Assembly (NCBI GenBank): GCA_964016885.1
Contig: OZ024740.1
Span: 281,728,001-281,792,000, forward strand
Length of the DNA stretch: 64,000 nt
Direction: 5' to 3'
Source: Eledone cirrhosa
Taxonomy: Eukaryota
The notes under the pieces were generated by a model. The model made no database searches. It was not told where the DNA came from and saw only the letters and a list, made by a program, of their open reading frames with translations. This document shows positions 57,601 to 58,819 of this stretch, piece by piece. The first letter of the stretch is position 1, and the number at the start of each line of letters is the position of its first letter. Both the position numbers and the translations under genes were made by a program.

Positions 57601-58819
57601 GAAACTAGTACATCGTTCCTGTGTCAGTGTTGAACAAAAAAAGGTGACGTGGTTGCCTTAACACCGTATGGCATAAATTCAGGCTGTTCAGTTTGTTTAC
57701 AAACGAACAAAGCGACGTTATAATAAGCGCCGCTAAACTGATACGTGCATATATGTATGTGTACCTGTATGCATATGTATATATATATGTATATATATAT
57801 ATATATATATGTGCATGCTACTGTACGTCTGTATACATATATGTATGTACGTATACATGCATACTTACATTTAAGTAAGTGCCATACTAAGAGTGAGAAA
57901 TGAAATTTCGTTTTCATTTTGTTTCAATTTATCGTTTTCGGTATGCCTGACCGATTTAACTCACTCAATATGCAAATTAGGCTGCTCAGCCGTTAATTTT
58001 CATAAGGAAAGTATATACTTTCGAACGTTCAACTATCTGGCAGATGGGTAAACGGTGCTGATGATAGCTAACAAGCTTGAAACTAGTACATCGTTCCTGT
58101 GTCAGTGTTGAACAAAAAGGTGACGTGGTTGCCTTAACACCGTATGGCATAAATTCAGGCTGTTCAGTTTGTTTACAAACGAACAAAGCGACGTTATAAT
58201 AAGCGCCGCTAAACTGATACGTGCATATATGTATGTGTACCTGTATGCATATGTATATATATATGTATATATATATATATATATGTGCATGCTACTGTAC
58301 GTCTGTATACATATATGTATGTACGTATACATGCATACTTACATTTAAGTAAGTGCCATACTAAGAGTGAGAAATGAAATTTCGTTTTCATTTTGTTTCA
58401 ATTTATCGTTTTCGGTATGCCTGACCGATTTAACTCACTCAATATGCAAATTAGGCTGCTCAGCCGTTAATTTTCATAAGGAAAGTATATACTTTCGAAC
58501 GTTCAACTATCTGGCAGATGGGTAAACGGTGCTGATGATAGCTAACAAGCTTGAAACTAGTACATCGTTCCTGTGTCAGTGTTGAACAAAAAAGGTGACG
58601 TGGTTGCCTTAACACCGTATGGCATAAATTCAGGCTGTTCAGTTTGTTTACAAACGAACAAAGCGACGTTATAATAAGCGCCGCTAAACTGATACGTGCA
58701 TATATGTATGTGTACCTGTATGCATATGTATATATATATGTATATATATATATACATATGTGCATGCTACTATACGTCTGTATACATATATGTATGTACG
58801 TATACATGCATACTTACAT
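57601..58819 (+). repeat. 2.5 tandem units (~475 bp) of HHR repeat subfamily B
   Basis: GAAACTAG recurs at 57601, 58079 and 58553. Both ends lie in (TA)n. Confidence 0.93.
58051..58095 (+). ncRNA. Minimal type I HHR (subfamily B); identical copy at 58525-58569
   Basis: AACGGTG-CTGATGA-tAGCTaacaAGCTt-GAAA-CTAG-TA-CATCGTT. Confidence 0.92.

Follow-up and report, generated by a model that had tools for sequence, protein, structure and literature searches.

The Subfamily B Array and Its Surroundings

The window analyzed in this study is a stretch of 64,000 nucleotides from Eledone cirrhosa (assembly GCA_964016885.1, contig OZ024740.1, positions 281,728,001 to 281,792,000 of the forward strand), and it contains tandem copies of a short repeat with a predicted hammerhead ribozyme, together with a Penelope-like element (Table 1). 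Repeat analysis revealed that the subfamily B array consists of 2.6 copies with 99% match, the units of which measure 478, 474, and 257 nt when counted from each predicted cleavage site. Units 1 and 2 differ by indels only, and unit 3 carries two mismatches. A (TA)n tract precedes the array, the first letter of which already lies within a hammerhead core, and another (TA)n follows its last letter, which coincides with fixed 3′ site 1. The hammerhead motif is complete twice in the array, at 58058 and 58532. The B unit has no coding capacity, since its longest ATG frame is 74 aa even in tripled B; the longest frames reach 20–74 aa in the ten subfamily consensuses and 164 aa in the joined E consensus. 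No terminal repeats (LTR features) were seen in the B sequence of the window. The predicted folds of B (z = −9.5) and A (z = −6.0) are more stable than chance, and the circular-fold z lies between −4.9 and −8.5 with the AT hairpin left out.

Several other repeats were noticed in the window. A near-perfect palindrome of about 800 bp lies at 59695–60500 between the B and A arrays, and two diverged copies of one short repeat (56806–56900 and 59355–59450) flank the B array at a distance. Near the partial C copy there are inverted repeats at 35545–35755 and a further copy at 36155–36290, and beside it, at 35290–35400 on the minus strand, there is a minimal hammerhead-like motif of another repeat, which is also found at loci L189 and L197.

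Table 1. Positions of the repeat arrays, predicted RNA elements, and the Penelope-like copy in the window.
Feature	Position	Strand	Remark
Partial subfamily C copy	35774..36095	+	Approximate limits; damaged hammerhead core; ends at site 2 before (AT)n
Subfamily A arrays	53163..54929		Two orientations
Autonomous RT + GIY-YIG Penelope-like element	55190..56790	-	Young, 5′-truncated
Subfamily B array	57601..58819	+	2.6 units, period 474
Type I hammerhead 1	58037..58106	+	By motif anatomy; predicted cleavage 58088/58089 (GUA)
Helix H2, 5′ arm	58107..58113	+	Partner 58501-58507
Hairpin H3	58117..58135	+	
Long-range helix H4, 5′ arm	58142..58149	+	
Hairpin H7	58187..58210	+	
Long AT-rich hairpin H8	58215..58335	+	Approximate limits; variable (TA)n loop
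Small hairpin H9	58336..58351	+	Fixed 3′ site 1 at 58344, in or beside loop
Long-range helix H4, 3′ arm	58354..58361	+	
Domain closed by helix H10	58365..58440	+	H10 arms 58365-58371/58434-58440
Hairpin H11	58371-58394	+	Inside H10 domain
Fixed 3′ site 2	58406	+	Unpaired, inside H10 domain
Hairpin H12	58412-58428	+	Inside H10 domain
Eight-base motif	58444..58451	+	Invariant in A, B, C, D consensuses
Type I hammerhead 2	58511..58580	+	By motif anatomy; predicted cleavage 58562/58563
Subfamily A array	60549..64000	-	Period 420; mostly minus with inverted segment; runs past window end

The Ribozyme Is a Type I Hammerhead by Motif Anatomy

The ribozyme of the unit is, judged by its motif anatomy, a type I hammerhead. 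The assignment rests on this anatomy because the Rfam hammerhead models gave no match at gathering score, the match to HH9 being weak (18.5 bits, E = 0.11) and below that score. The second hammerhead is composed of stem I (58525–58531/58563–58569), the core (58532–58538), stem II (58539–58552), and a palindromic helix III (58556–58561). The initial annotation had proposed that B keeps the pairings of A in stem I, core, stem II, a long-range helix, and a hairpin, and all of these were found where it had placed them. Between A and B, stem I shows a G-U/U-G swap and B gains one extra pair, and the core differs solely at position 7, the variable position, as had been claimed. The statement that stem II changes only in its loop holds for A and B but not for the other subfamilies, since the closing mismatch is changed in C and the whole stem is replaced in D and E. 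At the closing pair of stem II, where G10.1-C11.1 is expected, A and B carry U-U, C carries C-A, and D carries G-C. An active axolotl hammerhead family is known to have U-U at this position (PMC7229834). The cleavage triplets conform to NUH (GUA in A and B, GUU in C, D1, and E, GUC in D3), and the core is intact.

Helix III comprises one pair and a palindromic tetraloop, which is predicted to pair between two copies as a dimer (−6.8 kcal/mol). Metazoan hammerheads that act as dimers have such a helix III (PMC4209133, PMC7229834). Eight of nine Xenopus retrozyme dimers assayed gave no cleavage in vitro, a point against the propagation model given below. The helix III palindrome of E differs from that of the other families. 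In one B-type array (L195, G000:C1:319892000-319898500), the units alternate between the palindromes of B and E.

Subfamilies, Copy Number, and Sampling

The exact hammerhead pattern gave 38,726 matches in the 3.0-Gb assembly versus none for the reversed control, and the B-specific exact ribozyme motif is present in 8,453 copies genome-wide. The copies are dispersed across many chromosomes, and long homogeneous tandem arrays also occur. Subfamilies A, C, D, and E were found to be related to B, with pairwise identities of 61–98% (A-B 83%; E to A, B, or C 68–75%; D to A, B, or C 60–65%). A total of 393 units, 252 of them distinct, were cut from 206 sampled loci (L001–L206) and the window, a sample that leans to young copies because DNA searches return best matches only. 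From these, ten consensuses were derived (A, A2, A3, C, B, Bold, B203, D1, D1b, and D3); A3 is based on a single array and the other nine on the largest clusters, with the remaining small clusters and singletons left out. The consensus of family E, which is older than the others, was built from 47 of 73 fragments retained by an E-specific filter. A search for further families through other helix III palindromes returned only mutated A–D copies, solitary unrelated motifs, and chance matches in coding sequence.

A few loci deviate from these families. More distant elements combining the octamer and a hammerhead, which the search pattern demanded, were seen at L299, L309, and L311 and are possibly older relatives of D and E. 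Tandem arrays of 310–311 bp units lie at L189:2738-4273 and L204:789-1469, and a SINE-like insertion recurs in the H7 loop of several E copies (L216, L218, L215).

One Predicted Branched Fold With Compensated Helices Outside the Ribozyme

When A, C, B, D1, D3, and E, which are 61–96% identical, were folded singly, one branched topology resulted. It is kept even in D, the helices of which are partly unrelated in sequence. H2 is invariant in the A, B, and E consensuses, has one wobble in C, and is replaced by another helix at the same place in D. H3 is found in every subfamily with differing sequence, shifts in register, and shows double changes between A and C and between D1 and D1b.

The clearest case of covariation is H4, an 8-bp helix the arms of which are separated by 205 nt in the window. 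The initial annotation had overlooked this helix, which provides the best evidence. Five of its eight pairs are doubly changed across B, D, and E, with two each in B, E, and D relative to C (the E arms being taken from the E alignment), and G-U intermediates are preserved in two B lineages, Bold and B203. The long-range helix H10 (GAGTGAG/CTCACTC versus GAGTGGG/CCCACTC) keeps its pairing between A and B through one G-C/A-U double change, as had been proposed; overall, two of its seven pairs are doubly changed. In H7, five of nine pairs are doubly changed in a 26-copy alignment of A, B, and C, through partly dependent events; the stem turns over and the loop is kept or deleted. The compensated hairpin of the initial annotation is H7, and it is indeed present, but the B array of the window has an imperfect form of it (−7.5 kcal/mol, where older B variants reach −12.5 to −15.3). 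Most often, the fetched B units have a form with six loop bases missing (112 occurrences versus 43, without de-duplication of overlapping loci). The weakening of H7 in the youngest B form speaks against conservation of the fold.

The AT-rich hairpin H8 shows no significant compensation, none of its 34 pairs being doubly changed from A to B. The double changes are concentrated in three helices in the A/B/C alignment, with a few more once E is added. Compensation had been claimed across the whole unit; it does extend beyond the ribozyme, but it is clustered in few helices and absent from H8. Rfam microRNA matches on this hairpin were rejected as low-complexity hits below the cut-off.

The eight-base motif downstream of H10 reads like the octamer element; it is identical in the consensuses of A, B, C, and D, whereas the sequence that it pairs with varies. 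An snRNA-type promoter in the style of newt satellite 2 was considered for the units, but the U2 genes examined in the host carry no octamer: no exact match was found within 1.5 kb of three U2 genes, and none at one mismatch within 400 bp of three further U2 genes. The newt satellite 2 promoter is cited in an earlier report (PMC2220036).

Covariation Exceeds Neutral Expectation

To score covariation, a fold predicted from one family was evaluated on another, with the hammerhead and the AT hairpin excluded. From A to B, 6 of 81 pairs were doubly changed (null 1.25, p = 0.0007) and 9 were broken against 18 expected, so that significant covariation outside the hammerhead was found. From B to E, 10 of 77 pairs were doubly changed (null 3.6, p = 0.0003), and A to E alone gave 5 of 78, which is not significant (p = 0.10). 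The ribozyme covaries too, with 5 of 22 pairs doubly changed from E to A (p = 0.001).

In a tree-aware test, eight A/B/C/E consensuses were placed on a maximum-likelihood tree and neutral evolution was simulated along it. For all pairs, p was 0.003–0.033 over four reference folds; with the C-based fold, 13 of 86 pairs were doubly changed (null 5.0, p = 0.003). Among pairs spanning at least 55 nt, 6 of 22–23 were doubly changed with three references (p = 0.003–0.008) and 4 of 20 with the E reference (p = 0.14). With the C-based fold, double changes affected 6 of 22 such long-range pairs where 1.3 were expected (p = 0.003), and a single pair was broken where the null gave 11.4; across the reference folds 1–2 were broken where 10–12 were expected. 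In 26 real copies, 39 doubly changed cells were counted compared with 16.7 after shuffling (0 of 500 shuffles reached this value) and 5–12 when the fold was slid; the counts of pairs and of pair types were not above those of the shuffles (349/500 and 370/500). A set of 14 copies from D had double changes at 3 of 104 pairs (11 of 500 shuffles). The comparison of D with A, B, and C on a sequence-only alignment was significant one way only (p = 0.004–0.015 versus 0.50–0.78), the sequence alone aligning too poorly for a symmetric test. Where an alignment gap is close, some of the doubly changed pairs could be artefactual.

Selection Appears to Act on Propagating Lineages

Substitutions at paired sites were then divided by level. 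Between subfamilies, 62 of 81 keep pairing and 19 break it; within a subfamily, the copies show 359, of which only 110 preserve the pair and 249 disrupt it (OR 7.4, with p = 5e-14 overstated because the edges share branches). Double changes account for 32 of the 81 between subfamilies versus 7 of the 359 among copies. Independent events are few, with about 16 double changes on nine hand-chosen edges sharing branches. Mutations in copies are strand-symmetric, with similar rates at paired and unpaired sites. As changes between subfamilies keep pairs and changes within copies break them, selection appears to filter the lineages that propagate and not to act on the inserted copies, which decay neutrally. 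The proposal of selection on RNA fold beyond the ribozyme is supported by the double-change, the tree-aware, and the copy-versus-subfamily tests.

Paired changes could also arise by mutational templating, in which template switching by a reverse transcriptase or a DNA polymerase perfects imperfect palindromes without any selection on the fold. H7 would suit this explanation, being a short local hairpin with a stem that turns over fast, where several changes are perhaps one event, and master lineages undergo more rounds of reverse transcription than single copies. However, single-base compensation is seen in helices with arms 63–205 nt apart, with the G-U intermediates of the two B lineages; double changes are rare among copies; and single changes between subfamilies favor wobbles, 30 being kept versus 19 broken. 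We regard templating as an unlikely source of the pattern as a whole.

Fixed Internal 3′ Ends Match Penelope-Type Reverse Transcription

Among 206 non-redundant array 3′ ends, 151 fall at two internal sites, and 118 of those run into (AT)n, while only 14 of 225 5′ ends lie there. In consensus numbering, the fixed 3′ sites are +214 and +267–273 in A, +250 and +312 in B, and +228–233 and +302 in D, and E copies show the two 3′ ends too (18 short, 5 long, 24 not reaching). The 38 two-armed loci comprise 23 with a short and a long end, 2 long-long, 0 short-short, and 13 with at least one other end. On the fold, site 1 is located at the H9 loop just 5′ of the H4 3′ arm, and site 2 in an unpaired stretch within H10. 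The dispersal of the copies and the fixed internal 3′ ends in (AT)n bear out the view of the initial annotation that the repeat is not a plain satellite.

The insertions are 5′-truncated, often have inverted arms, target microsatellites, and have 3′ ends with an optional tail. All of these are traits of Penelope-like elements, as are two internal start sites (PMC8557442, PMC11167929), and internal initiation at two sites has been demonstrated in vitro for an anole element (PMC11167929). The ends of the units match Penelope-type reverse transcription, and on all testable features the repeat is a non-coding non-LTR retrozyme.

At its 3′ end, the Penelope-like copy in the window abuts an (AT)n tract that also belongs to an A copy. 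It is a member of a young autonomous family (L246–L257, L316), which has 900-aa frames with 99–100% protein identity and often forms inverted pairs. Copies of this family run into (AT)n at either of two ends, which are 41 nt from each other (n = 37: 18 short, 16 long, 3 read-through). The young RT + GIY-YIG family is a candidate helper of the units. No sequence homology was found between the units and this family (best E = 0.41), the one compared among 31,527 Penelope-like candidates in the genome. In the 3′ repeat of the young family we noticed a hammerhead-like motif with C instead of U at core position 4.

The Ribozyme Strand as the Probable Folded Molecule

In Watson-Crick helices read on the ribozyme strand, the mismatches are G-U rather than A-C at 21:4 overall and 9:2 outside the hammerhead and the AT hairpin, the latter being marginal (p = 0.03 before composition); composition alone predicts 1.06–1.27:1. 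The antisense strand folds less stably in all five families examined, and Watson-Crick-only folds are equal on both strands. The wobble bias points to the ribozyme-sense strand as the folded molecule and not to first-strand cDNA. ADAR-type editing is not supported in bulk as a source of the G-U bias, with 84 A>G versus 92 T>C distinct site changes among copies (p = 0.60). One D-family array (L204:2095-3960) has five A>G and no T>C relative to the consensus, a possible editing scar in its founder RNA.

A viroid-like RNA, replicating from RNA to RNA and leaving the arrays as reverse-transcribed footprints, would have its fold selected for a host polymerase. The small, highly paired, non-coding unit with a ribozyme and the turnover of subfamilies under lineage-level selection would fit such an agent. 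Nevertheless, no hammerhead core was found on the antisense strand in 11 consensuses (other ribozyme classes being searched through Rfam only), the antisense strand is the less stable one in five of five families, and tens of thousands of genomic templates and the Penelope-type ends suffice to explain the element. No sign of RNA-to-RNA replication was seen, and we consider it very improbable; the earlier description of an RNA-replicated element stands only in the sense of retrotransposition through RNA. A DNA-level element, either an unequal-exchange satellite or rolling-circle DNA with hairpins that matter as DNA, would agree with the long homogeneous arrays and the equal Watson-Crick-only folds, but it is scarcely credible given that the wobble bias picks out the ribozyme strand (21:4), the hammerhead itself covaries, internal 3′ ends are fixed and 5′ ends scattered, and inserted copies lose pairs freely.

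A Model for Propagation of the Units

Taken together, the units keep their predicted branched fold by compensation, and the likely reason is that a Penelope-like element acting in trans recognizes only transcripts with the right fold and reverse-transcribes them into (AT)n. According to this model, the arrays would be transcribed on the ribozyme strand, and dimeric hammerheads would cut out monomers, which probably circularize. The Penelope enzyme would then nick (AT)n and prime at the H9 loop and at the unpaired stretch after H11, both priming sites being flanked by the covarying helices H4 and H10. Copying round the circle or along a multimer could yield the tandem, 5′-truncated, and often two-armed insertions. 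H4 and H10 may form the recognition platform.

A more tentative extension, about which we are rather doubtful, is that a docking and priming platform made of structure only (H4, H10, and the hairpins between them) hijacks a Penelope reverse transcriptase sharing no sequence with the units and fixes both start sites across subfamilies that are about 62% alike, and that the youngest B circle may occur apart from genome DNA. Two runs labeled as other organisms (X4 and X5, library type unrecorded) each yielded a single contig that holds a full B monomer with a head-to-tail junction, of the 6-base loop-deletion variant with 0–1 other letters; they were not taken as evidence, since such contigs are expected from a tandem array or carry-over as much as from a circle. 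When the two runs were compared with window positions 58079–58600, no other full family unit was found at 80% likeness, and the Penelope ORF had no cover.

Comparison With Known Retrozymes and Related Repeats

Like the units, the non-LTR retrozymes of coral, mussel, and axolotl are tandem and non-coding, with one type I hammerhead each, low GC, and a highly paired predicted circle (PMC7229834). In the axolotl HHR_Amex1, as in the units, helix III has a single pair and a palindromic tetraloop, and HHR_Amex2 has U-U at the base of helix II, as in A and B (PMC7229834). The units are longer, 420–475 nt versus about 225–350 for coral and axolotl, and the folds of that study are energy predictions only, its main text making no mention of covariation (PMC7229834). 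Expression and circles were shown there, and Penelope-like mobilization was put forward as a hypothesis (PMC7229834), whereas our evidence is drawn from genomic sequence.

The non-LTR retrozymes of vertebrates share with the units their co-occurrence with Penelope-like elements, the range from monomers to multimers, and many families per genome (10.64898/2026.07.22.740005). In Xenopus, 24 of 57 families match known elements, 21 of them Penelope-like and at terminal repeats (10.64898/2026.07.22.740005); the units show no homology to the single autonomous family compared. In its available text, that study covers no molluscs and includes no analysis of ends or fold (10.64898/2026.07.22.740005). 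The Poseidon element PAc of the green anole likewise has two internal start sites downstream of a hammerhead, an optional tail, and AT-rich targets (PMC11167929). It differs in being autonomous, with start sites in the ORF in an AC-rich stem-loop (PMC11167929), whereas the units are non-coding with a tail of 54–70 nt and an (AT)n target. Hammerhead tandem repeats with compensatory stem changes, like the units, are also represented by pDo500 of cave crickets (PMC2837043) and newt satellite 2. In pDo500, as described in the text available, the compensation is confined to the hammerhead and conservation is lower elsewhere (PMC2837043); in the units it reaches helices outside the ribozyme.

A literature search with thin coverage of subscription journals listed no study of retrozymes in octopus, and none of covariation along the body of a retrozyme. 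Retrozymes of this kind and a proposed Penelope link are already described, and the comparative evidence for structural selection on the RNA body is new. The assumption for animal retrozymes is that they move as circular RNA that Penelope-like elements copy, for which the studies compared here offer predicted folds and a proposed route only. Our comparative evidence indicates that the RNA body, and not the ribozyme alone, is under structural selection, with lineages selected and inserted copies decaying, and it maps two putative reverse-transcription start sites on the fold, beside the helices with the strongest support. Since this genome also harbors a candidate helper that is apparently active, the recognition of such RNAs in trans by a Penelope enzyme and the circularity of the template become testable.
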